34,423 bases of DNA from an uncultured Anaerolinea sp. Its GTDB lineage: Bacteria > Chloroflexota > Anaerolineae > Anaerolineales > Anaerolineaceae. This document shows, piece after piece, positions 5,952 through 34,423 of the stretch. Numbering within the stretch: position 1 is the first letter of the stretch; the number at the start of each line of letters is the position of its first letter. The DNA lies in contig CAZSGL010000002.1 in assembly GCA_964606265.1 (NCBI GenBank), positions 1 to 34,423 of the forward strand, written 5' to 3'. The notes under the pieces are model-generated. The model did no database searches. It saw only the letters and a program-made list of their open reading frames with translations, and was not told the origin of the DNA. The position numbers and the translations under genes are program-made.

Positions 5952-5961
5952 ATTCTGTAAA

Positions 5962-7290: not shown

Positions 7291-7316
7291 TAATTGGTTC
7301 ATTTCCTGGAGGGAAC

Positions 7317-9246: not shown

Positions 9247-9294
9247 GACAAAAATAACTTTTTTTCTAAATTAAGTCACTGTAAAATTTTTCTT

Positions 9295-9345: not shown

Positions 9346-9366
9346 TTCCCATTTCCGGAGGGTCAA

Positions 9367-10762: not shown

Positions 10763-10839
<77 letters not shown>

Positions 10840-12377: not shown

Positions 12378-12389
12378 GGCTCTCCAATT

Positions 12390-13481: not shown

Positions 13482-13499
13482 AATTATTCGATCGTCTGC

Positions 13500-16113: not shown

Positions 16114-16115
16114 TT

Positions 16116-16958: not shown

Positions 16959-16974
16959 TCATCCTAATTTCAAT

Positions 16975-18036: not shown

Positions 18037-18160
18037 CAGTTGCTCCTATGATTGAATTCAGAAACCAAAAAAAATTATACCATAAGGGTTTTGTCAATAT
18101 TTTTATGGAACCCCTTCGTATGTTTTGATTCCTTTTTTAGCCGACTAAATCAAAACAGGA

Positions 18161-18189
18161 TTGACAAAACACTTTTAAGTCTATAAAAT
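18161..18189 (+). promoter_or_regulatory. Sigma-70-type promoter for tRNA-Gly
   Basis: TTGACA (18161-18166), a 17-nt spacer, then TAAAAT (18184-18189). The -10 ends 14 nt upstream of the tRNA 5' end. Confidence 0.55.
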
Positions 18190-18203
18190 ACCACTACCGT
18201 TCA

Positions 18204-18276
18204 GCGGGTGTCGCCAAGTGGTAAGGCAGTACCTTCCCAAGGTACCATTCCGTGGGTTCGAATCCCATCACCCGCT
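18204..18276 (+). tRNA. tRNA-Gly (anticodon CCC)
   Basis: The acceptor is GCGGGTG/CACCCGC, the anticodon stem GTACC/GGTAC with loop U-U-CCC-A-A, and the T arm GTGGG-TTCGAAT-CCCAT. The discriminator is U. CCA is not encoded. Confidence 0.9.
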
Positions 18277-18380
18277 CTTTCTTTCCCATTAGTTCGCATA
18301 ATACTTGCAATTAGTCATTGAGTACCAAGCAGTATTGCTTGGGACTTTGCATAACGGTAAGTAGTTTCCTGATGAATTAA

Positions 18381-18389
18381 TGCTAAAAT
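18381..18389 (+). promoter_or_regulatory. Possible extended -10 promoter (TGcTAAAAT) for the signalling operon
   Basis: TGCTAAAAT at 18381-18389 is followed by SD GAGG (18401-18404) and ATG 18410. No good -35 element is present. Confidence 0.35.
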
Positions 18390-18409
18390 TTTTGTACCTC
18401 GAGGTATTT

Positions 18410-18802
18410 ATGAATAATAGAAAAGTCATTCTTCATGTCGAAGATAATATTGATAACCGTGTATTAGTCAAAAGGCTACTGGAGTCTTCTTCATTCCATG
18501 TTGTTGAAGCCGTTAATGCCTTTGAGGCAATCACCTGCCTACGCAGATACCGGCCTGATCTTATCCTCATGGATATCAATATTCCTGATGTTGACGGATA
18601 TACCTTAACTTCAAAGTTAAAAACTGTTCCTGGAGTTCGTAATATTCCAATTATAGCCATTACAGCGAATGCCATGCGGGGAGATCGAGAAAAGACCCTT
18701 CGCGCAGGCTGTGATGGTTATGTCGAAAAACCAATTGACATCGACAATTTTCTGTCGCAAATCCACCAATTTCTCGGAAATCACAATAACCAGGGATTCT
18801 GA
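18410..18802 (+). CDS. Single-domain CheY-like response regulator receiver
   Basis: The preferred start is ATG 18410 (SD GAGG 5 nt upstream), not the track's 18380. Receiver motifs are VEDN, the phospho-acceptor context LILMDINIPDVDG, AITAN and GYVEKPI. No output domain is present. Confidence 0.9.
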   Translation: MNNRKVILHVEDNIDNRVLVKRLLESSSFHVVEAVNAFEAITCLRRYRPDLILMDINIPDVDGYTLTSKLKTVPGVRNIPIIAITANAMRGDREKTLRAGCDGYVEKPIDIDNFLSQIHQFLGNHNNQGF

Positions 18803-19248
18803 TGACAAACGAAAACCTCCCTGTCGCGCCTTACGAAGAAATATACGCAAATTTACAAAATAAAACTGTTCTCGTAGTTGAAGATAACATTGGAAATTTC
18901 ATGTTGATTGCCAGAATGTTAACTAATTACGGGGTCCATTGCGAATGGAAAACTTCAGGTTTTGAAGTCGTGGAATTTGCCGCTACGCTCTCAAGCCTAG
19001 ATCTTGTATTAATGGATATACGCTTGCCCTATGAAGATGGTTATGGCGCTATGCGAAAGATCAGGAAATCAGGTGAGTTCGAAAACATTCCAATTGTTGC
19101 GGTAACTGCCAATACTGGATTGGAGCAAATGCGTAGTGCTCAGATGGCAGGTTTTGATGGTTTTATTGGTAAACCATTAAATCCCGATCGTTTTCCGGAC
19201 CAGATTAACAGGATCCTCACAGGAAAACCTGTTTGGGAATGCAACTAA
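18802..19248 (+). CDS. Single-domain CheY-like response regulator receiver (second copy)
   Basis: 148 aa. Receiver motifs are VVEDN, LVLMDIRLPYEDG, AVTAN and GFIGKPL. The start overlaps the previous stop (TGATG). Confidence 0.9.
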   Translation: MTNENLPVAPYEEIYANLQNKTVLVVEDNIGNFMLIARMLTNYGVHCEWKTSGFEVVEFAATLSSLDLVLMDIRLPYEDGYGAMRKIRKSGEFENIPIVAVTANTGLEQMRSAQMAGFDGFIGKPLNPDRFPDQINRILTGKPVWECN

Positions 19249-19257
19249 GGAGTTTTT

Positions 19258-22200
19258 ATGTCTGAACAATTTGCCAGTACACCCATCCAGGAGAAGCAAC
19301 CGGTCTTTCGCAAAAACCTTGTTCAACGGGTTTTGATTGGTCTACTTTTAATTGCTCTTATACCAATTCTAATTATAAGTACAGTGACATTTATTCGTAC
19401 TCGTAATACAGTCCAATCTCAAGCCCTGGGTCAGTTAGCGTCTTTAGCTGATTCCTATTCTTTTCAAATTGAGCAATTTGTTGCAACCCGGCGCCAGGCG
19501 CTTGATCAGATCAACCAATCTGCCGGTTTTGACTCTAATGTTGCGGTACTATTCCAGGGAAGAACCGCCTCAACCTACTTCTTTGCACTTTCTTCGCTCA
19601 CAAACTACATTAATCAATATATTGAAACACCAACAGAAAAAATATTCGACCAAGTCTCCATTGTAGATATCGATGGCACTGTTCTAGTTTCATCAAACCC
19701 AGACCTCACAGGAACCATTCTTTCAGATAGTTACATCATCAGGTCAATGTATCAGCTTAATAAATCAGTATTAGCTTATGACCCGGGTGGTTTATTCCCT
19801 GGACAGGTGGTTCTAATTACTAGCAAGATATACATAAATCCAGAAGGTGCACCTGGACTTACTTTGGTAGGTTTTTCTGCATCGCCAGTCCCTCTTTCCC
19901 AATTAAATACCTCCCAATCATTCTTTGAATCCAGTGCGGGTTTTATCCTTGCCACCGATAATAACTTGATCACAACTGACCAAAAAACAATTTCTCCAAT
20001 TATCGTTCCACAAACCAGTGATGAGTTAGGCGCAATCCAGTCTCGCTTAACCTCTGGTGGATTGGGAACCCAATATCAGTATATCGACAAAAGCGGAGCT
20101 CAGGTTTTTGGTTACTATAAGAATTTACCCGCAGTATCTTCTAATTTAATAATTGAAGTTCCCCAATCCGTTGTTCTTGGTCAGCTTCAAGATCTCCTTC
20201 CATTTACCCTCATCCTATTAACTGCACTGATGTTGATCTCTGCAATAATTGTGTACATTTCGTCAAGGAGAATTGTAAAACCATTAGTTGACCTGGCAAA
20301 CGATGCCCAAACATTTTCGGCTGGAGACTGGTCTTATCGAGCTAAAGTTGAAAGAGACGATGAAATTGGATTGTTAGCTTACTCCTTCAATAATATGGTT
20401 GATCAGTTGACCGGTTATTATTATTCTCTTGAAGAAAAAGTTGAGTCACGAACCCAGCAGCTCCGACTTGCTGCAGAAATTGCTCAAGAAGCCAGTAAGG
20501 GACTCACCCAGGGGGATATACTCCATCAGGTTTCAGTTGCCATTTCTGAAAAACTGGAAATCCCATACCATGCGGTTTATTTGATTGACAATGTTTCGAG
20601 AACTGCTTCTCTACTAGAACAGAACTCAACCCTCTCCGATACCTTACCAGAGAAAAATTCGATAATCCCAATTAATAATGAATCCATGGTTGGTTGGTCA
20701 GCTGTCAATAAGCAACCGCGAACATCAGGAAACATCCGGGCAGAGAATGATTTCACCAATACTCAGGGAATTTTAGATTCTACATCAAGTCAAATTACTC
20801 TACCTGTTATTGTTGACGAAGAGGTTGTAGCGGTATTGGATTTCCAGAGTGACAGACCTAATGTGTTTGACAATGAATCGCTGACTGTTTTTTCCACCTT
20901 GTCTGACCAATTGGCCACCGGTCTTCGCAATATCCAGGTGGTTGAAACTGCTACTGTAGGTCTGCGTGAAACTAACGCCTTGTATAGCACCAGCCGACAA
21001 GTGACTGTCGCCCATTCTATCGAGGAGGTGACGGAACACCTGGCCTTCTTATTCAACCAGACTCAATATGTTAGTTTCTTTTTCAGTGTTCTTGGTGATC
21101 AGATTCACCTCATTAATGTTACTGATCCCAAAGGGACTAGGTTGGACCAATCATTGAAGGGTTTTAATATTCCCTTGGGAAAAGGTCTCACAAGGCTAAC
21201 AAATAATCCTATGCTAATTTTGGATGACCTGAAGACAGAATCTGACTTCAGCAACCTGAGTGTCTATTTTGAACGTAGAGGCTGCACTTCTATTGCGCTT
21301 CTACCCATTAGCATTACAAATGATCTTGGCTACCTCCTGGTAATGGGTTCTCGTGAACATGAACCTTTTTCAATTCTGCAGATTCAACCGTACATCAATT
21401 TAACAGAAGTAGTTGGGGCAACACTGGAACGTGTTACTCTCCTTTCAACATTAAATCAACGCGTAAAAGAGCTTGATACTTTGTCTTCAATCAGTCAATC
21501 TGCAACAACTGCCACTAATATTGAAGACCTTTTTGAAAGGGTCCATCAAGAGCTGATTCAAACTTTGGGCTCCAACCTTGGTTTCTCGGTCATACTAAAT
21601 AACATTGATCAAGCATCTCTTTCCATCGCATACTACAAAGATGACGAAAAACTGATCATTCCTGCCTATCCTTACACTGATGATCTTTTTTCTTTACTGG
21701 TCACAAAAGGCGAACCTATATTGCACAGAGATGCTTCTGTCCTTGGTTTGAGAACCGTTGACTTTGATCAGTTCACACTTTCTGCTAAATCCTGGTTAGG
21801 CATTCCTTTGATCCTGGGTGACCGCGTCCTGGGTGGTTTGGTTCTCTTTGATTCAAAAACATCCAATCGGTTTTCCACCGCAGATAGTGAGCTCATAAGC
21901 ACATTAGCTCCTCAAATTGCAGCCTCAATACAGAACACCGAATTAATCGCTTCCCAGGAAAGAGCCCTCAATGCATTTGAAGAAGAGAGATTCTTGTTGA
22001 ACTCACTTCTTAAGAATATTCCAGACGAAATTATCTTCAAAAACTCAAAAGGTGAATTTATCCGAATGTCTGATTCGGCATCCCTGTCCCTTGGAGCTGA
22101 GAATCCGGATTCTCTGGTTGGGAAACTGGATTCTGTTGACGAAATAACAGAGACTGAAACAGGTTTTGAATTGGAAGTTGATTCTGATCTTTCTGTTATT

Positions 22201-23574
22201 TCTCGTGCGACTCCACTCCTTGGAAAAATCGAACAGGTCGACAGCATTGGTGGAAATAAAGGCTGGGCTCTTACCAGTAAGATTCCATTATTGGATGAAT
22301 CTGGCAGTGTGTCAGCACTACTGAAAATTTCCCGTGATGTAACTGAGCTGGTTAATACTCAAAATATTGCGCGCCGCCGTGCAGATCAGTTATTGACCAC
22401 CAGCGAAATTGCCCGGGAAGCTACTACCGGTAACCTGGACATTGATGAAACTTTAAAACGTCTTGTGGACCTTGTTAAGAATCGTTTTGGTTTTTACCAC
22501 TCCTCGATCTTCCTGCTCGATGTGCTTGGTCAATTTGCTGTTCTCAGGGAATCTACTGGAGAAGCAGGGGCACAATTGAAAGAAAAAGGGCACAAACTCG
22601 CTGTGGGCTCTACATCAATTATCGGACAAACCACAGCAAGAGGCGAACCTGTTGTTGTTGGCGATGTGACAAAAGAATTGAATTATTATCCCAACCCATT
22701 GCTGCCAAATACTCGTTCAGAAATGGGTATCCCTTTGAAAATTGGCGATAAAGTATATGGAGCTCTTGATGTTCAGTCGGAAGAAGTGGATGCATTTACA
22801 TCGGAGGACATTAATATTTTGCGCGTTCTGGCTGACCAGTTAACAGTAACTATTCAAAATGCAAATCTCTATACCAAAACACAACAGACTCTAGAAAGAC
22901 ACAGATTATTGCAGCAATTAACGTCTTCTGCGGGTCAAAATATTACCATTGAAGATGCAACCAGAAATGCAGTTCAAGCGCTTCAACGAATTTTCCCACT
23001 TGAAAAAGTTACATATATGATATCAAGCTCTCCTGTCCATCTCAAAGTGAATTCCTACGCTGGTTATTCACCTGATTCTCTGTTATTCGATGAAATTACT
23101 AAAGGGCAAGGCATAATCGGCAAAGCTGGATCAGAAATTAAAGCACAACTTTCCATAGATATACCATCTTCTGATGAGGGTAACGCCTTATGCAAAGGCA
23201 CAAGATCGGTCCTTGCAGTGCCTGTTGCTTACGGTAACCGGTTAATGGGTGTTTTTGTGACAGAAAGTACAGAACCTGGGAAGTTTGATGAAAACGATCA
23301 GGAAATTGTGGCAACATTATCCAGCAATATGGCATCCTTAATTGCCAATATTGAACTTGTTGAGCAAATCAGGCTGCAGGTAGATCGGCAACGACAACTT
23401 TACGACATCACCAGTAAGATTCGCCGCTCTACCGACGTGGAGACAATCATGAAAACCTCGCTAGCTGAAATTTGTACAGCCCTCAATATTCGTAAAGCTT
23501 CAATTGAGCTGCTTCAGGACCAATCTGAGATTGAACCTGTTAGCGATTTAATGAATTTACAGAAGGGTAAATAA
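19258..23574 (+). CDS. Membrane sensor protein: TM, Cache-like ectodomain, TM, HAMP, multiple GAF, PAS-like, GAF x2, then a C-terminal GAF stub; no recognisable output domain
   Basis: 1438 aa. SD AAGGAG lies upstream of ATG 19258. The TM helices are LIGLLLIALIPILIISTVTFI and FTLILLTALMLISAIIVYI. The HAMP is RRIVKPLVDLA...DEIGLLAYSFNNMVDQL. There are several GAF-like modules, including the conserved subtype at about 22371-22875 (FGFYHSSIFLLD...NPLLPNTRSEMGIPLKIGDKVYGALDVQS). No H-box, GGDEF, EAL or HTH motif is visible by eye. Confidence 0.9.
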   Translation: MSEQFASTPIQEKQPVFRKNLVQRVLIGLLLIALIPILIISTVTFIRTRNTVQSQALGQLASLADSYSFQIEQFVATRRQALDQINQSAGFDSNVAVLFQGRTASTYFFALSSLTNYINQYIETPTEKIFDQVSIVDIDGTVLVSSNPDLTGTILSDSYIIRSMYQLNKSVLAYDPGGLFPGQVVLITSKIYINPEGAPGLTLVGFSASPVPLSQLNTSQSFFESSAGFILATDNNLITTDQKTISPIIVPQTSDELGAIQSRLTSGGLGTQYQYIDKSGAQVFGYYKNLPAVSSNLIIEVPQSVVLGQLQDLLPFTLILLTALMLISAIIVYISSRRIVKPLVDLANDAQTFSAGDWSYRAKVERDDEIGLLAYSFNNMVDQLTGYYYSLEEKVESRTQQLRLAAEIAQEASKGLTQGDILHQVSVAISEKLEIPYHAVYLIDNVSRTASLLEQNSTLSDTLPEKNSIIPINNESMVGWSAVNKQPRTSGNIRAENDFTNTQGILDSTSSQITLPVIVDEEVVAVLDFQSDRPNVFDNESLTVFSTLSDQLATGLRNIQVVETATVGLRETNALYSTSRQVTVAHSIEEVTEHLAFLFNQTQYVSFFFSVLGDQIHLINVTDPKGTRLDQSLKGFNIPLGKGLTRLTNNPMLILDDLKTESDFSNLSVYFERRGCTSIALLPISITNDLGYLLVMGSREHEPFSILQIQPYINLTEVVGATLERVTLLSTLNQRVKELDTLSSISQSATTATNIEDLFERVHQELIQTLGSNLGFSVILNNIDQASLSIAYYKDDEKLIIPAYPYTDDLFSLLVTKGEPILHRDASVLGLRTVDFDQFTLSAKSWLGIPLILGDRVLGGLVLFDSKTSNRFSTADSELISTLAPQIAASIQNTELIASQERALNAFEEERFLLNSLLKNIPDEIIFKNSKGEFIRMSDSASLSLGAENPDSLVGKLDSVDEITETETGFELEVDSDLSVISRATPLLGKIEQVDSIGGNKGWALTSKIPLLDESGSVSALLKISRDVTELVNTQNIARRRADQLLTTSEIAREATTGNLDIDETLKRLVDLVKNRFGFYHSSIFLLDVLGQFAVLRESTGEAGAQLKEKGHKLAVGSTSIIGQTTARGEPVVVGDVTKELNYYPNPLLPNTRSEMGIPLKIGDKVYGALDVQSEEVDAFTSEDINILRVLADQLTVTIQNANLYTKTQQTLERHRLLQQLTSSAGQNITIEDATRNAVQALQRIFPLEKVTYMISSSPVHLKVNSYAGYSPDSLLFDEITKGQGIIGKAGSEIKAQLSIDIPSSDEGNALCKGTRSVLAVPVAYGNRLMGVFVTESTEPGKFDENDQEIVATLSSNMASLIANIELVEQIRLQVDRQRQLYDITSKIRRSTDVETIMKTSLAEICTALNIRKASIELLQDQSEIEPVSDLMNLQKGK

Positions 23575-23575
23575 T

Positions 23576-25237
23576 ATGAACTATTTCCGTTCATTACTCC
23601 CCTCATACTCTCCACCTAATATTGACCCAAAGGATGAATTACGTGTCTGGCAGGAACGGTCACTGCAATACCTGCTGATCGGATTCGCCATAATCAGTGT
23701 AAGTGTCGCATTATTAATGATTCAATCCTCGAGTTTCACCGGAAATTGGACTTTATTCTTTAGTTTTGCTTTTCTTGCTCTAGCTTCTTTGGCACTTTTT
23801 CTCCTCAGGAATGTCTCTTATTGGATCCGGTCAATTTCCGCTCTGGTTGCTTTTTACATTGTAGCTACGGTTGTTTTTATCCGTAGCGGTTGGGGTGGTG
23901 TTGCTCTCCTCATGCTCATTTCTTTTTCCTTTCTCGCAACTATTTTTCTTTACAATAAACCATCAAGGATAGGCTTAGGTTTGAGTATTGGTACGCTCTT
24001 ATTCTGGGCAGTCCTCCGCAGCACTGCACTAGTTCCGGGAATTGTTGAATCATCCAACATACTCACCCTGATCATCGACGTTGTATTGGTCTTATTTATT
24101 GGAGTCGTGGGTAATTTTGCCATTTCAACATTGAAAAAGAAATTCCTTGATGAGCATAATAAGTTAACGAGTTCTGAATTAGCTAGAGAAGAACTGCATA
24201 GACAATTAGAGCTTCAGAAAACAGACCTTGAAAAGAGAGTTTTCCAATTACGTACCGCTTCAGAGATCACCCAAACAGCCTCAACGATTTTCGAAGCCCA
24301 GGCTTTGTTACAGAAAGTGGCAGAACTGGTTCGGGAGCGATTCGACCTCTATTACATCGGGATTTTTCTGCTTGATGAAGCAAAAGAGTATGCCGTTTTG
24401 CGCTATGGCACAGGTGATGCTGGCCGAAGAATGATGGCAGCAAAGCACAAGCTGGCAGTTGGTGGCTATTCAATGATTGGATGGGCTACCCAAACCAGGA
24501 AATCAAGAATTGCACTGGATGTCGGAGAAGAAGCAGTGCATTTTGATAATCCGTTACTTCCAGAAACACGGTCTGAACTAGCATTGCCCATCATCGGTGC
24601 AAATGTTGTTTACGGTGCTATGACGGTCCAATCGACATTGGTTAACGCATTTGATGAAAATGACGTATTAATTCTTCAAAGTGTTGCCGATAGTCTTGCC
24701 GTCGCCCTCGAAAACGCTTCCTCATTCCAAAAATCACAGAAAGCCATGGATGATATCCGTGTTTTGAATCGTGCCTATATTAAACAAGCTTGGTGGGATA
24801 CGCTCGATTTGAACCGCGAAATGAAATTTGACTTTGAAAACCCAGAATCCATTGAAATGCCGGAGAATCCAAACACCATTGAGGTCCCACTGGTTTTACG
24901 TGATGAGGTGATTGGTAAAATCAACCTTGAATTTGATGGTTCTGAAGTTTCAAAGGAGATGCAAGAATTTTTGGATACGATATCCTCCCAAACAACAGTT
25001 GCGCTTGAAAACGCCAGGTTGATTGAGGAAACGCAGCTCGCAGCTTTACAGGAGCAACAATTAAATGCCCTTACAGCCCAGTTTTCGAGAGCAGTTACTA
25101 TTGAAGAAATTCTAAAGACAGCGGTTATGGAATTTGGCAAACTTCCTTCTGTAAGTGAGGCGTCAATCGCACTTATCCCACCTGAAGAGAATGAAAGCCG
25201 CGAACTAAGACCTTTCACCAGTAAGGAGGTGAAATGA
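23576..25237 (+). CDS. Polytopic membrane protein (about 6 TM), coiled coil, GAF, half-GAF module, then a GAF stub; no output domain
   Basis: 553 aa. It starts 1 nt after the previous stop. The GAF is FDLYYIGIFLLDE...NPLLPETRSELALPI. The protein then continues YIKQAWWDTL...VPLVLRDEVIGKINLEF...ALENARLIEE and ends with ...ILKTAVMEFGKLPSVSEASIALI. Confidence 0.88.
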   Translation: MNYFRSLLPSYSPPNIDPKDELRVWQERSLQYLLIGFAIISVSVALLMIQSSSFTGNWTLFFSFAFLALASLALFLLRNVSYWIRSISALVAFYIVATVVFIRSGWGGVALLMLISFSFLATIFLYNKPSRIGLGLSIGTLLFWAVLRSTALVPGIVESSNILTLIIDVVLVLFIGVVGNFAISTLKKKFLDEHNKLTSSELAREELHRQLELQKTDLEKRVFQLRTASEITQTASTIFEAQALLQKVAELVRERFDLYYIGIFLLDEAKEYAVLRYGTGDAGRRMMAAKHKLAVGGYSMIGWATQTRKSRIALDVGEEAVHFDNPLLPETRSELALPIIGANVVYGAMTVQSTLVNAFDENDVLILQSVADSLAVALENASSFQKSQKAMDDIRVLNRAYIKQAWWDTLDLNREMKFDFENPESIEMPENPNTIEVPLVLRDEVIGKINLEFDGSEVSKEMQEFLDTISSQTTVALENARLIEETQLAALQEQQLNALTAQFSRAVTIEEILKTAVMEFGKLPSVSEASIALIPPEENESRELRPFTSKEVK

Positions 25238-26967
25238 TTAGCCCTACACCACCATCCAACGAAACCAAATTTTCCCGGTCAGAGGTATCACACCACTCGA
25301 TTGATGAATTAAAGACCATACTTCTGCAAAATTATCTTAGTGGATCGATCATTCTTGGGACAGTCGTATTTTTTATCAGCCTTTTCGTCTCAATTCAAAA
25401 GCAGGATTATGTAACCGCAATACTCGTGACAATAATTTTCCTGGTTTTATTCATCATCACGTTCGTTCGCAGCATCAATACAAATATCCGTACGGTGACA
25501 TTGGCTTTTCTTTATATTGCCACAGGCGTGTTGAGTATTCTGTCTTCCGGTATTAATTCCAACGCAATCTTGTACTTTTTCACTTCAATATTGTTATTGG
25601 GAATTATGTTGCGTGGTTTATGGTGGGTAGCCGGGTTGATATTTGAAGGAATTCTCATTTCAGTCATGGGATTGTTGATCCAATTTAATTTGATTCAATT
25701 GGATACAATTTTTCGCTCAGAGAATTCTATCGTCAACTGGTTCACAACGATCACAATGACTCTTTTCATGGCGTTTGTTGTTGTCTCTCCTCTTGCACAA
25801 TATATTTCTGCCTTGAGATCCCAAAAGACTAATTTGGAAGCAGAAAAAGAAGTCCAGGACTTCAACAACTCGCGCCTTAATGAAAGAATTTCCGCTTTAG
25901 AGACAGAAGTCGATAAAAGAAGATCGAAAATGCTCGCAGCCAGGCAGATTTCGCGAGAAATTACACAACAGAGTGGATTACAGGAAATGTTAAATGAGTC
26001 TGTTGATTTGGTGTGTACACAATTTGAATTCTATTATGCAGCCATATTCCTATCTGATGAAAGGAATGAGTTTGCTGTTTTACGAGCTGCCAGTGGCGAA
26101 TCAGGTAAACAACTTCTCTCACAAGGTCATAAATTGAGGATTAGAGAAGAGGGTATTGTTGGATACGTTGTTGCCCGCGGAGAAACCAGGTTAGCTCTTG
26201 ATGTTGGTGAAGATTCAGTTCATTTTAAGAACCCTCTTTTACCTGACACTAGATCTGAGATCGGAATTCCATTAAAAATCGGACCCAAAGTTATCGGAGC
26301 ATTGGATGTTCAATCAGATAAAGAGACTGCTTTTTCTGAGGAGGATATTGATATCCTGCAGTCAATTGCTGATCAACTTGCTTCGGCTATTGATAAGTCA
26401 ATCTATATCGGCGACTTAGAGTCTCAGGTAAAGGAACTTATTATTGGTTCTGGAGAATCCACACGTGGTGTGTGGCGGTCACATCTCTATGGTTCAAAGC
26501 GGAATCTTTCCTATATTTACCGGGACGATCAATTGACCAGCGCAGTAGCCACCCCATTATTGAGTGATTTTTCCGAGACAACTATAGAAGGATATGCTTC
26601 TGATACTGAGGAAGGTGAAACAAACTCACCAGTTACAGTTTATTCACTTCCAATTAAATTAAGGGATCAAGTTCTTGGGTTGATTAAAGTCCGGTATAGC
26701 GGCAAAAAAATGCCTGTTAGGATGGTCAACCTGGTAAATACAGCCACCAGTCGTCTTGCAATTGCTTTGGAAAACGCTCGATTACTTGAAAACATCCAGG
26801 AACGCGCAGAACGTGAACATACAGTGGGGGAAATTTCAACAAAGGTTCGCGCATCCCAAACCATTGAAGCAATTATGCAAACAGCAGTCTCCGAACTCGG
26901 AAAGACACTTGGCGTCAATGAGGTAAGTATCCAATTAAAAACAACTGACAACACTGATCAAGAATAG
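25234..26967 (+). CDS. Polytopic membrane protein (about 6 TM), coiled coil, GAF, half-GAF module, then a GAF stub; no output domain
   Basis: 577 aa. SD AAGGAGGTG is present and the start forms an ATGA overlap with the previous stop. The GAF is FEFYYAAIFLSDE...NPLLPDTRSEIGIPLKIGPKVIGALDVQS. The half-GAF module is LPIKLRDQVLGLIKV...ALENARLLEN. The stub is ...IMQTAVSELGKTLGVNEVSIQL. Confidence 0.88.
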   Translation: MISPTPPSNETKFSRSEVSHHSIDELKTILLQNYLSGSIILGTVVFFISLFVSIQKQDYVTAILVTIIFLVLFIITFVRSINTNIRTVTLAFLYIATGVLSILSSGINSNAILYFFTSILLLGIMLRGLWWVAGLIFEGILISVMGLLIQFNLIQLDTIFRSENSIVNWFTTITMTLFMAFVVVSPLAQYISALRSQKTNLEAEKEVQDFNNSRLNERISALETEVDKRRSKMLAARQISREITQQSGLQEMLNESVDLVCTQFEFYYAAIFLSDERNEFAVLRAASGESGKQLLSQGHKLRIREEGIVGYVVARGETRLALDVGEDSVHFKNPLLPDTRSEIGIPLKIGPKVIGALDVQSDKETAFSEEDIDILQSIADQLASAIDKSIYIGDLESQVKELIIGSGESTRGVWRSHLYGSKRNLSYIYRDDQLTSAVATPLLSDFSETTIEGYASDTEEGETNSPVTVYSLPIKLRDQVLGLIKVRYSGKKMPVRMVNLVNTATSRLAIALENARLLENIQERAEREHTVGEISTKVRASQTIEAIMQTAVSELGKTLGVNEVSIQLKTTDNTDQE

Positions 26968-26981
26968 TCAGTGGAGGAAAG

Positions 26982-29918
26982 ATGATAAATACTCAAAAAG
27001 AAGCGCTGAGCAATTCTCGACCGGATAGAAAACCGATTGCCATTAATCCAAGGTTGTTCATTCTAAGCCTTGTCATCCTTTCGGGAATTCTCTCGATTGC
27101 TTTCATTTTCATTTCAATCTATACAGGGATCTCATCCTTCTTCCTTCTCGCTGCAGGGTTCACGCTAACCACGCTTCTCGGTTTATTGGCTATAACCAAG
27201 TACTGGCTGGCTCAAGAGTCCGTAAAATTATTAATTTTTGCATTGTTATTTGAACTATCCATAATCCTATCATCAACGATATTACCGTCGTATTCAGGAT
27301 TTCCCTACTCGATAATTGCACTAACAACTGCATTTCTCATTACAACATCATTCGCCACATCAGCAAACACCGACTGGGTCATTTGGACAGGTCTCCTGGG
27401 GGCAATCGGCTCAATCTTGTTTAGTATTTTGGCTCCGTTGCCTCAAATAATTAACTCAAACATCCAACTTGCTGTGGTCATCCTGGCAGGTTTCTTCCTG
27501 ATGATTTTGGTTTTCTTACTCTTCTTTGGAAATCTTCGGATAAACCTGCGTGTTAAATTGATTTTAGGAGCGCTCGCTCTTTCTCTAATCCCTATTACAG
27601 CTCTCGCGTTGATCAATAACCAATACCTTATGACATCCATTCAGCAACAAGCTAACGATTCTCTTAACGTTGCGGCAGCTCAAACATCATCTGAAATTGA
27701 CGGTTTCTTACTTGAAAACCTCGAATCGGTGGCGAGTGAAGCCAGTTTACCGGCATTGGTCGATTATCTGGCTCTTGATCCTCAAGTTAGGCAAGGGTCA
27801 TCTGAGGAACAGGAGGTTTTGGTAACAATTCGTTCATTGCAGACAAAACAAAAGGTCTATCTTCCTTCTTATGCTATTCTAAATTTCGTCGGCGCGAATG
27901 TAATCGACACATCGGAAATAAACATTGGCACTTCCGAGAGGACGACTTCATACTTTAGGCAATCAGCGATAACCGGTGCTGCTTTTATTTCACCTGTTGA
28001 ATTTATCCCTGGAACGCGTGAAGCATACATCAATTTTATTTCGCCAATTGTGAATCCCTCGAGACAAGTGATTGGTTACTTGCGCATTCGGTACGATGCG
28101 CGAATACTGCAATCCCTAATTGAAGATAATGTTGGTTTGATTGGAACAAGGTCCTATCCAGTTTTGTTGGATGAAAATGGAATGCGACTTGCGGATGGAT
28201 CTGCGCCAAACCTGGTATTCAGAACGATTAGCCAATTACCGACTGAGACTTTCAATAATTTAACCAGGGCGAACCGAATTCCTTCTTACCTGCCCCAATC
28301 ACTTCTCCATAACGTGCAGGAAGATATCGCCCGAGTGGCACTAACTGACAGAACATCAGATTACTTTACGACATCAACTTCAGCGGGTGGAACCACGCTC
28401 TCGCAGTTAGGAATCATCAAGACTCTCCAGTATCAATCCTGGAACGTTGTGTACTTACAAGACCAATCCTCATTGTTAGTGGCTATTATTAATCAGAACC
28501 GCCTGTCTGCAATTATCTCGACACTGATCGCAGCCCTTGTTGCTGTTTTTATTACAATCGTTGCTAATTCATTTTCAAGACCAATTATTCAATTGACAAA
28601 CGCGGCTGAAAAAATCTCTAAAGGTGATTTAGATGTACAGGCACCTGTTACATCAAAAGATGAGATTGGTTTATTGAGTACCTCTTTCAATTCGATGACA
28701 CGCCAGTTAAAGGAATTCATTGATACACTGGAAAACCGCGTTCGCGAACGTACTCAACAGCTGGCTCAACAGTACGAAACACTCCAATTTCGTTCGAGAC
28801 AGCTTCAAACCGTTTCTGATGTAGCCCGTGGCGTTGTTTCTTCTCGTGAAATTGAGTCCCTTCTGAATTCAGTTACGACATTAATTAGTGAGCGTTTCAA
28901 TTTCTACCATGTAGGTATTTTCCTGGTAGATGAAAAAAATGAAAATGCAATTTTGCGCGCAGCTAACTCCGTTGGTGGTAGGAAAATGTTAGCCCGTCAA
29001 CATAAGCTACAAGTTGGTCAAACCGGTATTGTCGGTTTTGTTACCGGAACTGGTTCACCTCGTATTGCTACTGATGTTGGTCAGGATGCAGTATTCTTTA
29101 ACAATCCGGATTTACCCGATACAAAATCTGAAATGGCACTCCCATTAAAAGTTGGCGATAGAACAATCGGCGCATTGGACGTTCAATCCGTTGAATCCAA
29201 TGCCTTTTCCAGCGAGGATATCGAACTCTTCTCAACACTGGCGGACCAGGTGGCGATCGCGATTAACAACAACCAGTTGTTCGAGGATACTGCCAAAGCC
29301 CTAGCGGAATCAGAGAGAGTCCACAGGCAATACCTCAACCAGGAATGGACAAGGCAATCGACTGAAGCTACTGCAAACAGTTACAAATACACACCAGATG
29401 GCTTAGTTCCATTTACTGAAGATCTTCCAGAAGTAAGAATGGTGTTGGAATCCGCAAGACCAGTATTCAAATCTCAAAAAGGCAATGAGAGTGAAAGTCA
29501 ATACAGCTCTTCATTGACAGTACCTATCCTGCTGCGTGGTGAGTCTATTGGCGTAATCCACCTGCAGGAAACAGATGACAAACCATTTACCTGGAGTCAG
29601 AACGATCTTCTCACTGTCCAAGAAGTAGCCAATCAAGTTTCACAATCTCTTGAAAATGCCCGATTATTCGAAGATACGATTCGCCGTGCTGATCGTGAGA
29701 GAAAAGTGCTTGAAATTACCAGTAAGATCAGGTCCACAAATGATCCTCAGCAGATGCTTCAGATTACTTTGGAAGAACTTAAAAAGAATCTTGGCGCAAG
29801 CAAAGCTCAAATAGTGTTTAATGTTGGTGAAATCCATGAAAATCAATCCCATTTAGACCAGCAAGATGATCCAGAAGAAACACATACTATTAATGAATCT
29901 GGAACTACCGAGGCGTAA
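26982..29918 (+). CDS. Polytopic membrane protein: Cache-like ectodomain, TM, HAMP, GAF, half-GAF module, then a GAF stub; no output domain
   Basis: 978 aa. SD GGAGG is present. The HAMP is SRPIIQLTNAAEKISKGDLDV...DEIGLLSTSFNSMTRQLKEF. The GAF is FNFYHVGIFLVDE...NPDLPDTKSEMALPLKVGDRTIGALDVQS. The half-GAF module is VPILLRGESIGVIHLQE...SLENARLFED. The stub is ...MLQITLEELKKNLGASKAQIVF. Confidence 0.9.
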   Translation: MINTQKEALSNSRPDRKPIAINPRLFILSLVILSGILSIAFIFISIYTGISSFFLLAAGFTLTTLLGLLAITKYWLAQESVKLLIFALLFELSIILSSTILPSYSGFPYSIIALTTAFLITTSFATSANTDWVIWTGLLGAIGSILFSILAPLPQIINSNIQLAVVILAGFFLMILVFLLFFGNLRINLRVKLILGALALSLIPITALALINNQYLMTSIQQQANDSLNVAAAQTSSEIDGFLLENLESVASEASLPALVDYLALDPQVRQGSSEEQEVLVTIRSLQTKQKVYLPSYAILNFVGANVIDTSEINIGTSERTTSYFRQSAITGAAFISPVEFIPGTREAYINFISPIVNPSRQVIGYLRIRYDARILQSLIEDNVGLIGTRSYPVLLDENGMRLADGSAPNLVFRTISQLPTETFNNLTRANRIPSYLPQSLLHNVQEDIARVALTDRTSDYFTTSTSAGGTTLSQLGIIKTLQYQSWNVVYLQDQSSLLVAIINQNRLSAIISTLIAALVAVFITIVANSFSRPIIQLTNAAEKISKGDLDVQAPVTSKDEIGLLSTSFNSMTRQLKEFIDTLENRVRERTQQLAQQYETLQFRSRQLQTVSDVARGVVSSREIESLLNSVTTLISERFNFYHVGIFLVDEKNENAILRAANSVGGRKMLARQHKLQVGQTGIVGFVTGTGSPRIATDVGQDAVFFNNPDLPDTKSEMALPLKVGDRTIGALDVQSVESNAFSSEDIELFSTLADQVAIAINNNQLFEDTAKALAESERVHRQYLNQEWTRQSTEATANSYKYTPDGLVPFTEDLPEVRMVLESARPVFKSQKGNESESQYSSSLTVPILLRGESIGVIHLQETDDKPFTWSQNDLLTVQEVANQVSQSLENARLFEDTIRRADRERKVLEITSKIRSTNDPQQMLQITLEELKKNLGASKAQIVFNVGEIHENQSHLDQQDDPEETHTINESGTTEA

Positions 29919-30682
29919 TGACCTATATTATTTCTATTGCGAACGAAAAAGGTGGCGTGGCAAAAACCACTACCACACTATCCCTTGGTGGTGCATTTGC
30001 TGAAATGGGTAAGCGTGTATTACTAGTGGATTTGGATCCACAATCAAACCTATCGCTATCTTTGGGAATTGAACCTGAGCAAAAGGTCTCCTCTATCATC
30101 AACCTCATTCTTGATAATGGAAATGTCCTGGATTGCGTTAAACCAACCAGGGTTGAGAACCTTTCCTTGCTCCCTTCAAACGCCGATATCAGGATGGCTG
30201 AACGAGTATTGCCAACAAAATCTGATTATCACTTGCTTTTACGAAACCTTTTGGCACCGTTAAGTGATCAATATGATTTTATCCTGATGGATTGTCCGCC
30301 GTTTTTAGGCGCGATCACATTAAATGCCCTCATTGCGGCGAATATACTTATCATCCCAACACAAGCTGAGTATTATTCCGTATTTGCCTTGCGAAATATG
30401 ATGGCCCTCATACGCCAAGTCAGAAGTTTGGGAAATCCCAATCTTCGTTATCGGCTGTTACTGACCATGTTTGATAAACGCAACGGTATCCATCGCAGCC
30501 TTGCAGAACATCTTCGAAATTCATTTTCAAGTGGTGTTCTTGATACTGTGATCGAAATTGATACGCGCTTAAGGGAGAGCCCCCTTGTTGGGCTTCCGGT
30601 AGTCTTCCACGCAACCAAGAGTCGATCTGCACTTCAATATCGGTTCCTGGCACAGGAGATCCTGAATTATGTCAAAAAATGA
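29918..30682 (+). CDS. ParA/MinD-family P-loop ATPase
   Basis: 254 aa. The deviant Walker A is NEKGGVAKTTTT, followed by VLLVDLDPQSN and Walker B FILMDCPPF. The start overlaps the previous stop (TAATG). Its last 14 nt overlap the next gene's start. Confidence 0.93.
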   Translation: MTYIISIANEKGGVAKTTTTLSLGGAFAEMGKRVLLVDLDPQSNLSLSLGIEPEQKVSSIINLILDNGNVLDCVKPTRVENLSLLPSNADIRMAERVLPTKSDYHLLLRNLLAPLSDQYDFILMDCPPFLGAITLNALIAANILIIPTQAEYYSVFALRNMMALIRQVRSLGNPNLRYRLLLTMFDKRNGIHRSLAEHLRNSFSSGVLDTVIEIDTRLRESPLVGLPVVFHATKSRSALQYRFLAQEILNYVKK

Positions 30683-33600
30683 AATTAACAACCGAATCAA
30701 TAAATTGTTTACTGGCATCCAAGACGGTGATGAATCAATTATTTCCGCATTGAGTGTTCAGAAATCAGATCAATTTTCATGGGAAAGTGATGCCAATGGA
30801 TTGTACACTCAGTGCAGTCAGGAGGTTACTCAAGTCCTTGGGTATTTACCGGAAGAAGTTATTGGTAATCCATTACTTTCCATAGGATTATCTTTTTCTG
30901 AGCAAAGCAAATTACGCAACGCATTGCAATCTGAATTGTTTCCCTGTGATGTTGAGCTTGTATTTCAAACAAAAAATGGACAATTTGTTACAACCCGATG
31001 TAATCTTTTTCAAAAGAGTAATTCAGAAGGAAAGCTTATTGGGTACCAGGGGATAGTTCTTCAACTTGATACTCAAATTGAGCATCTAGTTACCCCCGAT
31101 ATTCCTACCAGAGAATTAAATACCAATGATGCAGAAACTTCAGATGCAGATCCAGTAGATTCACATTTGTCTCTGCTCTCTGCAGGGATCCAAACGGGAA
31201 AATTACCTGAAATTGATGACAGTGTTACATATTCTCCAGAACCAATTTCGCCATCTGTTAAACCAACAAAAAAACGCCGTGAAGTAAAACCTAAAGAAAT
31301 CACACACCCACAAAAGTCCTCTTCTCAGTCCAGGGTAATTCAGACAGCGCCTCTCCCACCCATTTTTTCCGCGATTCCTCCTACTCCCATTGTGGATATT
31401 CCCTCGCTCGCTGATTCATTTACCGGTATTACCCTGCAGGAAAATGATTTTAAATCTGCGGAATCAACCTGGTCAAAACAAGCTGAATCTAGCCTGGTCC
31501 ACAATGAAACAATCTCTCAAAACGGAGATATTAATAATCCAGCGGTTATTGTTACACCTTTAAAATTACGTGACCGCCAAACAGCAGTAATCGAAGTATT
31601 AGATAGCGCTCCAGAGAGAAAGTGGACGCAAGCCGATCGCCTTCTAGTGCAAGAAATATCAACACAATTAGGTCTTGCTTTGGAAAATGCTCAACTTTAT
31701 TCAACAATTCAAAAAGAGTTGCGTGAAAGAGTAAAGGCTGAAGAAGAAACATTGAGACGTAATAGAGATCTTGCCACGTTGAACCAGATCGGTCAACGCT
31801 TAAGTCGCCTTGTTGGGCAGGAAGAGATCTTTGAAATAATCACAAGTATGTCTCAAGATATTTTAAACCAGAACAATATACTCGTATCAATATTTGATCC
31901 TGAGAAGAAACAACTTGCGTTTCCGGTTTGCCTTGTTGATGGAGAGAAACAGACCATTATTCCACGTAAATTATTGAATGGTTATCAGGAAACAATTCTG
32001 AAAAATAAAACTTCATTATTGGTTAACTCCGACCTTGTCCAGGTAATCTCTGAACCAACCTTTGATCACCCCAGGAACAAACCTCTTTCCCTTCTCGCCG
32101 TTCCATTATTGACAGCAGATAAAGCTATTGGCATCATCTCAGTTTACGATTTTGATAAGGAAAATGCGTTTTCCCAGGTACAAGCAGAATTACTTTCAAC
32201 CATCGCTTCTCAGGCAGCTACCGCTCTTGAGAATACCAACCTCTTCACAGAAATCCGCGATGCTCTCGCAATTATTGAAGTGAGGGAACTTTACCAATCT
32301 AATGTTACCAATGCTGTAGCTCGATTAAGCGAAAAAGGCTCGTCAGAAACTGATTTTCTACTCGAATCACTCTCCAAAGCCTCTTCCAGTGAACGTGTTT
32401 TTTACGCTCAGTCCGATGACGATCCAAAAATTGGAAAAGCCTGGTTCCCCAGGTCAATATATTGCCAACCGGGTTTTGAATTAAACATTAACCCCATGCC
32501 ATTTGAGAATTTTCCTAATTGGGTCGAGATGCTTGAAAACAAACCTTGGTTCAGCTATACGCAAAGCAATTGTCCTGAGCCAGAAAAACAATTCTTAATT
32601 GATAACGCGATTCAATCAGTACTAATGTTTTCAATCCGACTGGAAGATCAACCAGTAGGATGCATCGGTCTTTTGAATATTGCTTCTCCGATGGAGTGGA
32701 AATCTGAGCAAATTGACATTCTTACAATTGCTACAGATTCATTCAACAATACCCTTATCCGGGAAAGCTTGTTGAACAGGGTACAAGGTTCTTTGTCAGA
32801 AACCGAGAGTTTGTATTCTGCCTCCCACCAATTGGCATTAGCGGATGATATGCAAAAGATGCTTGAAGCTGTTATTGAAGGCACCAACGTCCAGGCGATC
32901 AACCGTGGTGTTCTGGTATTGTTTGATTATGATCCTAACAATCAAATCAGCCGGATGGCTGTTGAAGCCAACTATTACTCGGGCATTGGGACTCCTCCTC
33001 CAGTTCGGGGAACAGAATACCTGGTTTCACTGTATAAATCAATATTTATAACACAAAACCCGGTATTTTATGATGATCTATTAGAGATCCAACTGGAAAA
33101 ATCACTTCAAGACATCTTAACACGGCAAAATATACGGTCTATGGCTGTATTACCCCTCTGGTCCGCCAACAAGCAACTAGGTGTAATGCTTTTACAAACT
33201 CCACAAAAGCATACATTTTCACCTCAAGAGTTGAGAACCTATCCTCCCCTCTCAGACCAATTGTCAACCTCCATTCAAAACCTCCGCTTGTTCGAGGAAA
33301 CACAGGAAGCGTTGTCGGAGACCGAATTGCTTTATAAAATATCGAGTGGTATTGCGAAATCACATACTATGGAAGAACTTGTTCGGCTTGTCGGAGAAAA
33401 CGTTCTGCCCCAAAATGCTGACACGTTATGGTTATGCACGAGCACCTATAATACCCAGTCTAAATCGAATGACATTGAAGTGATAGGTTCATATTCATCA
33501 ACAGGTCAGTATTCAGTTTCCGGAATTAAATTGGATCCGGGAGTATTGTCCTTTATTGACTTTTCAAAAGCTGAACCGGAAGTCTTTTCAGATATTTCCA

Positions 33601-34423
33601 AGTCTGAACTTCCAGCCAATACACAGGGGATTTTTAGAAATCTATCCATAAACGCGGGTGCAATTTTCCCGCTTCAAACTAGTGGTAATCCCGTTGGGTT
33701 GTTGATCGCCAGTTCGAAGCGTGTTCAAGAATTTGACCCGAATGACATTCACACCATGCAAATCGTTTCCAATAGTATTGCGGTGGCACTCGAAAGGCAG
33801 AAACTACTCTTCGAAGCCCAAAGGCGTGCAATTGAACTTCAAACCGCTGCAGAAATCGCCAGAGATACTACCAGTACGCTATCACTCGAAATTCTGCTTA
33901 ATCGAATCGTCAACCTACTTAAGGATAGATTTGAGCTTTACCATGTATCCATTTTCCTGCTGGATGATACAAATACCTACGCACTTATCCAGGAATCCAC
34001 CGGAACTGCGGGCCAAGAATTAAAACGACGCAATTATCGGTTGGCTGTTGGTTCCAAATCAGTTATTGGTACTTGCACGGGTACTGGTGAGACGGTTGTT
34101 GTTAATGATACAACTCACAGTTCCATCTACTATCCCAATCCGCTTTTGCCAGATACACAATCCGAACTCGGACTCCCTTTGAAAATCAGCGGCAAGGTCA
34201 TTGGTGCCATTGACCTCCAATCGACTGAAATAAACGCATTCCCGCAAGAAGCGACTGCAATCCTCCAGATTCTCTCTGATCAGATTTCGGTAGCTATTGA
34301 TAACGCGAAAGCTTACGCCATTTCGCAGGAAGCCGTAGAAGAAATGCGCGAACTTGATCGTGTAAAAAGTCAATTCCTCGCGAACATGAGTCATGAATTA
34401 CGCACGCCTCTAAATTCAGTCAT
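30669..34423 (+). CDS. Large PAS/multi-GAF sensor histidine kinase, 3'-truncated by the window end
   Basis: This ORF is not in the supplied track because it has no stop codon in the window. ATG 30669 is preceded by AGGAG. I translated the frame (codon starts divisible by 3) at the start, near 31500, and at the end. The N-terminus reads MSKNEINNRINKLF... followed by a PAS-like segment (FSWESDANGLYTQCSQEVTQVLGYLPEEVIGNPLLS). Further on come VTPLKLRDRQTAVIEVLD...LALENAQLY, several GAF-like modules and the conserved GAF subtype (FELYHVSIFLLDD...NPLLPDTQSELGLPLKISGKVIGAIDLQS). The window ends in a HisKA H-box, RELDRVKSQFLANMSHELRTPLNSV. I did not translate every codon, but no competing long ORF exists in 30.7-34.4 kb. 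Confidence 0.88.
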   Translation, partial: MSKNEINNRINKLFTGIQDGDESIISALSVQKSDQFSWESDANGLYTQCSQEVTQVLGYLPEEVIGNPLLSIGLSFSEQSKLRNALQSELFPCDVELVFQTKNGQFVTTRCNLFQKSNSEGKLIGYQGIVLQLDTQIEHLVTPDIPTRELNTNDAETSDADPVDSHLSLLSAGIQTGKLPEIDDSVTYSPEPISPSVKPTKKRREVKPKEITHPQKSSSQSRVIQTAPLPPIFSAIPPTPIVDIPSLADSFTGITLQENDFKSAESTWSKQAESSLVHNETISQNGDINNPAVIVTPLKLRDRQTAVIEVLDSAPERKWTQADRLLVQEISTQLGLALENAQLYSTIQKELRERVKAEEETLRRNRDLATLNQIGQRLSRLVGQEEIFEIITSMSQDILNQNNILVSIFDPEKKQLAFPVCLVDGEKQTIIPRKLLNGYQETILKNKTSLLVNSDLVQVISEPTFDHPRNKPLSLLAVPLLTADKAIGIISVYDFDKENAFSQVQAELLSTIASQAATALENTNLFTEIRDALAIIEVRELYQSNVTNAVARLSEKGSSETDFLLESLSKASSSERVFYAQSDDDPKIGKAWFPRSIYCQPGFELNINPMPFENFPNWVEMLENKPWFSYTQSNCPEPEKQFLIDNAIQSVLMFSIRLEDQPVGCIGLLNIASPMEWKSEQIDILTIATDSFNNTLIRESLLNRVQGSLSETESLYSASHQLALADDMQKMLEAVIEGTNVQAINRGVLVLFDYDPNNQISRMAVEANYYSGIGTPPPVRGTEYLVSLYKSIFITQNPVFYDDLLEIQLEKSLQDILTRQNIRSMAVLPLWSANKQLGVMLLQTPQKHTFSPQELRTYPPLSDQLSTSIQNLRLFEETQEALSETELLYKISSGIAKSHTMEELVRLVGENVLPQNADTLWLCTSTYNTQSKSNDIEVIGSYSSTGQYSVSGIKLDPGVLSFIDFSKAEPEVFSDISKSELPANTQGIFRNLSINAGAIFPLQTSGNPVGLLIASSKRVQEFDPNDIHTMQIVSNSIAVALERQKLLFEAQRRAIELQTAAEIARDTTSTLSLEILLNRIVNLLKDRFELYHVSIFLLDDTNTYALIQESTGTAGQELKRRNYRLAVGSKSVIGTCTGTGETVVVNDTTHSSIYYPNPLLPDTQSELGLPLKISGKVIGAIDLQSTEINAFPQEATAILQILSDQISVAIDNAKAYAISQEAVEEMRELDRVKSQFLANMSHELRTPLNSV

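Follow-up and report, generated by a model that had tools for sequence, protein, structure and literature searches.

We describe a sensory operon that lies in a 34,423-nt stretch of DNA (contig CAZSGL010000002.1 of an uncultured Anaerolinea sp.; hereafter the window, to whose full length all coordinates refer) and is seen there from position 18380 to the window end at 34423. Two stand-alone receivers (RR1 and RR2) are followed in it by four membrane sensors (G1438, G553, G577 and G978), a ParA-like ATPase and the 5' part of a giant hybrid histidine kinase. None of the four sensors carries a recognisable output domain, each of them shares one copy of the same GAF subtype (GAF-A) with the kinase, and in close relatives the genes continue into a pyridoxal-phosphate (PLP) dependent enzyme that is fused to a receiver and followed by an EamA exporter. 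We propose, with somewhat less than even confidence, that the transmitter-less sensors modulate a single kinase positioned by ParA, that five receivers take part, and that the threonine synthase (ThrC)-like enzyme and EamA form the output. The window holds just the first eight genes of this longer operon, and what lies beyond its end was taken from the relative L001 (91% identity).

Gene order and continuation of the operon

The eight genes are packed tightly (Table 1). RR1 and RR2 are joined by TGATG, gaps of 9 nt and 1 nt separate RR2 from G1438 and G1438 from G553, G553 and G577 overlap in ATGA, a 14-nt gap lies between G577 and G978, G978 and ParA share TAATG, and the ParA and kinase genes overlap by 14 nt. 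The initial annotation of the window had given the eight open reading frames (ORFs), their sizes and the seven junctions exactly as they appear in the ORF list and the translations. It had also taken the two CheY-like proteins for the sole receivers and HisKA for the sole catalytic signalling domain. Both statements are artefacts of the window end: in L001 the kinase has two receivers and the PLP enzyme one more. As to a further statement, that there is no transcription-factor output, the cluster is indeed without a transcription factor, but the relatives carry an enzymatic output downstream. The claims on receivers and on output fail because the window truncates the operon. Orthologues of RR1 are 128-133 aa long, and the true start of RR1 is probably the ATG at 18410.

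In order to follow the conservation of the cluster, the ParA protein was compared with one genome per species, which gave 21 Anaerolineae loci. All loci that are long enough read G1438-G553-G577-G978-ParA-kinase with overlapping or near-abutting genes, and the synteny check found this order, which the initial annotation had seen in a single genome, in about 20 species-level Anaerolineaceae genomes with protein identity down to about 40%. Since both the order and the tight junctions are kept at such divergence, which goes far beyond chance, the cluster is a real functional unit. The neighbourhoods of the G553 orthologues contain the full 5' end, RR1-RR2. In L037, on a 3.1-Mb contig, the upstream neighbours are a methyltransferase and a mannosyltransferase instead of mreB, thus the unit starts at RR1 and the adjacency of mreB is incidental. 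Judging from these loci, the full unit in close relatives is (tRNA-Gly)-two response regulators-four sensors-ParA-hybrid kinase-ThrC-like enzyme/receiver-EamA exporter, and the operon is, as far as the genomes compared indicate, specific to the Anaerolineaceae lineage.

Related clusters, reached from the giant GAF proteins, contain several (d)Cache/HAMP-GAF proteins, then ParA and then a giant soluble GAF array, behind which stand a Cache-GAF kinase of its own, the enzyme-receiver fusion and EamA; in the variant L038 the GAF giant is without a kinase. L039 starts with two receivers, and ParA was not seen within reach. In L039 a GAF-only protein of 2,697 aa is separated from the following GAF sensor by a nucleotidyltransferase/HEPN toxin-antitoxin pair (18096-18843), and a 1,073-aa RAMP-domain protein is encoded upstream. 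In L020 and L025, metagenome-assembled genomes with isolate names beginning with MFD, the operon genes are split into many short ORFs (65-96% identity); these breaks are probably assembly frameshift errors, not pseudogenes.

The tRNA-Gly(CCC) gene directly 5' of the operon is also found upstream of it in L035, L009 and L037, in the last case with one gene between. Ahead of this tRNA lies the region's best sigma-70-like promoter match (18161-18189), and the gene may have its promoter or transcript in common with the operon. Neither a riboswitch nor a leader was found by Rfam, and the promoter and terminator scan of the region gave signals not above chance.

Membrane sensors without an output domain

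The four sensors differ in their N-terminal parts. G1438 consists of a transmembrane (TM) segment, a Cache-like ectodomain, a second TM segment, HAMP, a series of GAF units with one PAS (PAS_4) and the conserved C-terminal tail; Pfam recognises four GAF stretches, while our own hidden Markov model (HMM) and count give about six GAF-like places, and the dCache_1 match of the ectodomain (27 bits) is under the 45-bit cutoff. In G553 a MASE11 domain of 5-6 TM segments is followed by a long signalling helix, GAF-A, a mini-GAF (beta-hairpin and helix) and the tail, and in G577 MASE11, GAF-A, mini-GAF and tail follow one another. The MASE11 (PF20969) scores of G553 and G577 are 32.0 and 34.6 bits, above the gathering cutoff of 27.3; this domain has been described earlier (bioRxiv 10.1101/2021.11.05.467447). 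G978 has a 5-TM bundle, a dCache_1 ectodomain (46.1 bits), a TM segment, HAMP, GAF-A, mini-GAF and tail. The amino-acid-binding dCache motif is not clearly present by eye in the G978 ectodomain, and a sequence search of the PDB with this ectodomain gave no match. The hydropathy scan finds 2-6 TM segments in each sensor and none in the kinase; the kinase is predicted to be soluble and the four sensors to be membrane-anchored.

The GAF assignments rest on Pfam GAF, GAF_2 and GAF_3 matches between 1e-13 and 1e-52. No kinase, cyclase, phosphodiesterase or DNA-binding domain was found in the four sensors at E < 0.01 (Pfam, NCBIfam). An AlphaFold2 model of G553, built from 32 sequences (mean pLDDT, the predicted local distance difference test, 74), shows a membrane helix bundle that is linked by a helix of 75 residues to a GAF, and behind the GAF a further long helix, a beta-hairpin, a pair of helices and a disordered end. 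Foldseek matches of this model in the PDB were GAF domains only (target-normalised TM-score 0.7-0.8), cAMP-, substrate- and bilin-binding GAFs among them. A cryptic output in the four sensors was rejected on these grounds and by comparing the profile of the tail with that of the kinase DHp, which gave a probability of 1.3%. The lack of a recognisable output, noted by eye in the initial annotation, is thus upheld by Pfam, NCBIfam, structure prediction and profile-profile comparison.

All four sensors end in a common C-terminal module, a mini-GAF (hairpin and last helix) followed by a tail of about 45 residues that is among the best-conserved parts across the G553 orthologues. We considered this "half-GAF plus tail" as a special C-terminal domain and rejected the idea, because its profile recurs 7-21 times in giant tandem-GAF proteins and the module is therefore the junction between successive GAFs. 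The tail itself reads as the first helix and strand of an uncompleted GAF.

An exhaustive HMMER search with the junction profile matched 78,007 representative proteins. The best matches are giants of 1.1-3.9 thousand amino acids with 7-21 matched stretches; among the best scorers are output-less proteins with up to 13 Pfam GAF stretches, and others reach 21 matched stretches. Of the giants that end in the same module, five have 5-13 Pfam GAF stretches and nothing else apart from MASE11 or dCache-HAMP in some of them, and their source annotation is just "GAF domain-containing protein". Since such giants consist of GAFs, output-less GAF arrays form a large and real family, which, by this search, is not peculiar to the present operon. 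Metagenomic proteins such as P0241 and P0248 reach up to 3,952 aa and up to 21 junction matches; the giant GAF-only metagenomic proteins scanned for domains had none besides GAF, and they appear to be uncharacterised.

A GAF subtype shared by the sensors and the kinase

An HMM was built from the best-conserved GAF of each large protein. With this model G1438, G553, G577, G978 and the kinase each have a single strong match of about 270 bits; in the kinase, GAF-A stands directly before HisKA. The copies share 37-51% pairwise identity, and a single GAF-A per protein is also the rule in the orthologous loci. At the same threshold every GAF protein of the variants L018, L019 and L038 has at least one GAF-A, and the 10-GAF giant of L038 has three. 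The motif F-x-NPLLP-D/E-T-R/K-SE...P is strictly kept in the GAF-A of all five paralogues and of their orthologues. GAF-A copies are better conserved than the whole proteins and group by orthology, therefore the paralogy is old. Among the sequence evidence, the sharing of GAF-A is the strongest sign that the five proteins work together; it fits such cooperation without proving it, and does not distinguish between direct GAF-GAF association and a common ligand.

The hybrid kinase and its receivers

The last gene of the window encodes a PAS, four GAF stretches recognised by Pfam and the first 20 residues of HisKA, up to the H-box ...MSHELRTPLNSV. The order along the protein is N-terminal peptide, PAS, Pro/Ser-rich linker, mini-GAF, four GAFs, GAF-A and the HisKA H-box. 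In L001 the kinase is 1,722 aa long and comprises PAS, about five GAFs, HisKA, HATPase and two receivers; the HATPase_c domain, which lies beyond the window end, is found in this orthologue (3e-29) and also in other loci. The operon proteins and the L001 continuation contain no Hpt domain. All five receivers, i.e. RR1, RR2, the two of the kinase and the one of the PLP enzyme, keep D12, D55 and K107 in the alignment, so that the acidic position, the Asp that accepts the phosphoryl group and the conserved Lys are all intact. The kinase DHp is nearly invariant across the loci, as expected if it serves several receivers. On these domain assignments the system belongs to the HisKA-type two-component systems and its ATPase to the ParA/MinD family.

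The ParA-like ATPase and the peptide encoded after it

The ATPase, which had been recognised as ParA-type in the initial annotation, matches AAA_31 and aligns with Soj/ParA structures over residues 4-252 of its 254 (E 3e-49 to 2e-36 in a PDB sequence search). It has no extension past the Soj core and is without a MinD-type C-terminal membrane-targeting helix, and it reaches no NCBIfam equivalog cutoff. Its nearest relatives outside Anaerolineae (35-40% identity) are encoded in gidA-gidB-parA-parB loci, while Pfam found no ParB domain in the operon proteins. From this kinship with chromosomal ParA and the lack of ParB we conclude that a signalling operon has here recruited a Soj-type ParA as an orphan. 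The homologues among the matches listed are all orthologues of at least 62% identity and do not widen the known taxonomic range.

The place of ParA is always the same, after the final GAF protein and ahead of the giant soluble one, and the overlap of its stop with the start of the following gene is likewise found in the orthologues. Every protein encoded right after ParA opens with the consensus MSKxxINNRLDxLFSxI (in the window MSKNEINNRINKLFTGI, also written as MSKNEINNRINKLFTGIQ), which is kept in L018, L019 and L038 though the following sequence is unrelated. As ParB, MinE and McdB have N-terminal peptides, we infer by analogy that this peptide may contact ParA and that the giant soluble GAF protein may be the cargo of ParA.

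The enzyme-receiver fusion and the exporter

In L001 the gene that lies 8 nt after the kinase encodes a protein of 561 aa, in which a PLP-dependent (PALP) domain is fused to a receiver at the C-terminus; it is followed by an EamA transporter and then by hisS on the other strand. Wherever a long-variant locus extends far enough, the fusion and EamA come after the kinase, and their identity (60-79%) is above that of the sensors. A further protein, P0124, is 95% identical to the L001 fusion. Between kinase and hisS in L009 (16208-20079), the place of the fusion and EamA is taken by two FGE-sulfatase-domain proteins.

In the PDB and in NCBIfam the fusion matches threonine synthases best, and all 120 of its 120 orthologues keep the PLP-lysine motif SFKDR. 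The NCBIfam threonine synthase score of 218.8 bits stays below the cutoff of 303. Measured against motifs judged invariant from four solved ThrCs, STGNT is replaced by STGNV in 119 of the 120 orthologues, NSVNPxR by G(S/A)RSIPC and VGNAGN by VSGALG; overall, the changes are seen in 119-120 of the 120 orthologues or in the aligned sequence. These three motifs presumably include residues that bind the substrate phosphate. Because of the altered motifs the enzyme, although ThrC-like, may have a substrate different from that of ThrC.

The linkage was also followed in metagenomes with the divergent L038 fusion as query, which gave 80 loci, 37 of them with at least 7 kb upstream. The fusion is encoded in 36 of these 37, a GAF kinase lies directly upstream of it in 33, and 31 have at least one GAF-only ORF of at least 400 aa further upstream; EamA was found in 23 of the 30 loci with at least 3 kb downstream. 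In these distant clusters EamA is mostly on the opposite strand. A second small kinase-like ORF (about 415-455 aa) often stands after the fusion (L061, L063, L069, L074 and many more).

Proposed mechanism and its alternatives

The sequences themselves show the architecture, the lack of output domains, the conservation, the common GAF subtype, the kept N-terminal peptide and the linkage of the genes to the enzyme fusion. How the proteins touch one another, which way the signal runs and what the output enzyme makes would be as follows. The four membrane proteins would sense external or membrane cues by their Cache, MASE11 and polytopic modules, and the signal would run down a continuous helical spine to the cytoplasmic GAF-A and the conserved tail. 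These transmitter-less sensors would act on the single soluble kinase, which bears a GAF-A beside its phospho-acceptor helix, the likeliest route being hetero-association through GAF domains and coiled coils. ParA, translationally coupled to the kinase, would probably contact the basic N-terminal peptide and so position or partition the kinase complex. Phosphoryl groups would then be shared among the five receivers: two in cis, the two free regulators, which would modulate or serve as sinks, and the receiver of the PLP enzyme. The product of this enzyme would be an amino-acid-like compound exported by EamA. In a bolder form, which we regard as improbable, the system would be a GAF-based counterpart of chemoreceptor arrays: transmitter-less receptors and giant soluble GAF arrays would be joined by a single dedicated GAF subtype into a cytoplasmic "signalosome", spaced and partitioned along the filament by ParA; the kinase would switch on the ThrC-like enzyme, and a non-standard amino-acid product, exported by EamA, would be sensed back by the Cache and MASE11 receptors in an autocrine, quorum-like loop of Chloroflexota.

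Several observations speak against the modulation of one ParA-positioned kinase by the sensors. Among the 37 distant metagenome loci ParA is present in 4, the flanks being limited, and some proteins of more distant loci carry 2-4 copies of GAF-A. The short variants L009 and L013 (response regulator, two GAF proteins, ParA, kinase) are without the enzyme fusion. In L038 the gene after ParA encodes a 10-GAF protein without a kinase, and in its kinase GAF-A is not adjacent to DHp, therefore the simple picture in which GAF-A gates DHp is not universal. The C-terminal region of the G553 model is predicted with moderate confidence (pLDDT 57-76). Co-transcription of the genes would follow from their spacing, the promoter and terminator scan having been uninformative.

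The conservation of GAF-A could be explained in another way, if the five domains do not touch each other and all bind the same small cytoplasmic molecule. The ligand might be what the ThrC-like enzyme makes or consumes, its level being set by EamA. In that case the cluster would work as a feedback circuit for a metabolite, with the membrane proteins reporting the ligand to something else. The strictly kept GAF-A motif, the tight linkage of the GAF proteins to the PLP enzyme and EamA, and the general ability of GAF domains to bind small molecules, illustrated by the ligand-binding Foldseek matches, are in line with this, and the GAF domain of CodY binds branched-chain amino acids. However, the four membrane proteins would be left without a route to output, no ligand can be assigned to GAF-A, the cNMP (cyclic nucleotide)-type NKFDE motif is absent by inspection, and the short variants have GAF-A proteins yet no PLP enzyme. 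We consider a common ligand unlikely as the explanation.

A distinctly unlikely view is that tandem-duplicated GAF proteins act independently of the kinase, as scaffolds, ligand sinks or partners of proteins encoded elsewhere, with ParA as a spare chromosome-partition paralogue and adjacency reflecting ancestry and co-regulation instead of a joint signalling complex. The sensors are indeed paralogous with a common C-terminal module, output-less GAF arrays are a huge family, at least one array (L039) has no ParA within reach, and the nearest outside relatives of ParA are ordinary chromosomal ParA proteins. Against this, order, overlaps and paralogue number are stable in about 20 genomes whose sequences have diverged to 40%, the paralogues are old and each persists as an orthologous line of its own, the position of ParA is constant and without ParB, and the kinase DHp is almost invariant. 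The presence of a ParA-type ATPase in an operon that runs divergent to mreB-mreC-mreD-pbp2-rodA, with the mreB cluster upstream in the window and in L009, L035 and L036, would also suit a module that organises cell shape or the filament and controls wall growth or septation instead of a metabolic output. This is very improbable: the operon of L037 has unrelated upstream neighbours, and what is conserved downstream is the PLP enzyme with EamA rather than enzymes of the wall.

Should the sensors indeed act on the ParA-positioned kinase, the operon would be a clear genomic case of transmitter-less transmembrane sensors working through a separately encoded soluble kinase. It would suggest that GAF domains can couple sensors to a kinase, and would assign a function to the very large unannotated class of "GAF domain-containing proteins". 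A histidine kinase would be added to the candidate cargoes of ParA-type ATPases, and a ThrC-like PLP enzyme linked to an exporter would be a response-regulator output that we have not found described. Anaerolineaceae are abundant, poorly studied filamentous bacteria of digesters and sediments, and a conserved 20-kb sensory operon offers a concrete entry point to their sensing and perhaps to their metabolite exchange.

Other features of the window

The operon is preceded by a divergent block with gltX and cell-wall genes, in which a 166-aa ORF at the mreD position has no Pfam match. Further upstream, 3859-10710 on the plus strand may be a biosynthetic cluster for a ribosomally synthesised and post-translationally modified peptide (RiPP), and a short ORF at 3859-4212 (+) could encode the RiPP precursor.

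Table 1. Positions of the operon genes, their elements and the neighbouring features in the window
Feature	Position	Strand	Description	Evidence
RR1	18380..18802	+	140 aa, stand-alone receiver	Pfam Response_reg 7e-26
RR2	18802..19248	+	148 aa, stand-alone receiver	Pfam Response_reg 3e-19
G1438	19258..23574	+	1438 aa, membrane sensor	Pfam, TM scan, GAF-A HMM
GAF-A of G1438	22387..22899	+	aa 1044-1214	self-built HMM, 270.6 bits
G553	23576..25237	+	553 aa	Pfam, AlphaFold2, Foldseek
GAF-A of G553	24245-24754	+		self-built HMM
Tail of G553	25055-25180	+
G577	25234..26967	+	577 aa, paralogue of G553	Pfam, HMM, alignment
GAF-A of G577	25927-26436	+		self-built HMM
G978	26982..29918	+	978 aa	Pfam, TM scan, HMM
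GAF-A of G978	28800-29309	+		self-built HMM
ParA-like ATPase	29918..30682	+	254 aa	Pfam AAA_31 7e-52, also CbiA
Deviant Walker A KGGVAKTT (in NEKGGVAKTT)	29939-29971	+	signature lysine present
Hybrid histidine kinase, 5' part	30669..34423	+	1251 of ~1722 codons, open at window end
N-terminal peptide of kinase	30669..30719	+	candidate ParA-contact peptide
GAF-A of kinase	33834-34346	+	directly before HisKA
Phospho-acceptor His1242	34392-34394	+	in the H-box
H-box ...FLANMSHELRTPL	window end	+		HisKA match partial in window, complete in L001 (7e-19)
tRNA-Gly(CCC)	18204..18277	+	directly 5' of operon	ARAGORN, Rfam
gltX-rodA-PBP2-166-aa ORF-mreC-mreB	10890-18036	-	divergent to operon
tRNA-Pro(GGG)	10763-10838
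MFS transporter	9367-10710	+
Methyltransferase	8485-9246	+
PqqD-radical SAM protein	7317-8495	+
Radical SAM/SPASM protein	5806-7290	+
ORF of RiPP-type cluster	4206-5951	+	581 aa	no Pfam match
tmRNA	125-517		tag AKNTSYVALPLAA

Comparison with known systems

Literature searches turned up no description of the operon, of a ThrC-like receiver fusion or of such a coupling of ParA with a histidine kinase, in agreement with the initial annotation, which had not recognised a described system. Each of the domains is known; the combination and the logic it implies are new.

In outline the system works like a chemosensory array (MCP-CheW-CheA-CheY) or like DivL-DivK-CckA, though it belongs to neither. 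In chemosensory arrays Cache/HAMP receptors without enzymatic output likewise converge on one soluble kinase, and CheY-like single-domain receivers and a ParA-family ATPase are also found within the operon. ParA-type array positioning is performed by PpfA/TlpT in Rhodobacter sphaeroides. In Vibrio and Pseudomonas chemosensory arrays are positioned by ParC/ParP (PMC5706961). The present operon differs in that its kinase is a HisKA-type hybrid, its coupling modules are GAF domains and its target is a PLP enzyme, not a motor; no operon protein matched the MCP (methyl-accepting chemotaxis protein) signalling domain, CheW, CheA (Hpt/P5), CheR or CheB in Pfam and NCBIfam.

In the DivL-DivK-CckA system of Caulobacter the hybrid kinase is under the control of a kinase-like sensor that is itself non-catalytic, and of a single-domain regulator, and here too non-phosphorylating sensors and free receivers may modulate a hybrid kinase through contacts of sensor domains. 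DivL, however, retains a degenerate DHp/CA, of which the four operon sensors have nothing; moreover there are four sensors, the contacts would be made by GAF instead of PAS, and the system has no Hpt/transcription-factor endpoint. Several sensors converge on one kinase also in the RetS/GacS/LadS network of Pseudomonas, whose partners are all histidine kinases that contact each other through their DHp domains. Direct contact, a feature of that network, is what we propose here, but the sensor partners of the operon are entirely without DHp.

ParB and MinE carry N-terminal ATPase-stimulating peptides. Such a peptide was described for McdB of the McdAB system as well (PMC6328274). With ParA-ParB, MinD-MinE and McdA-McdB the operon shares the deviant Walker A, and the product of its next gene opens with a short conserved basic peptide that resembles theirs; while the partners in those systems are adaptors that bind DNA or organelles, the candidate partner here would be a giant kinase with a GAF array. 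Finally, the fusion enzyme has the PALP fold and the SFKDR motif in common with ThrC, and is set apart from it by the C-terminal receiver, the score below the cutoff and the three changed motifs.

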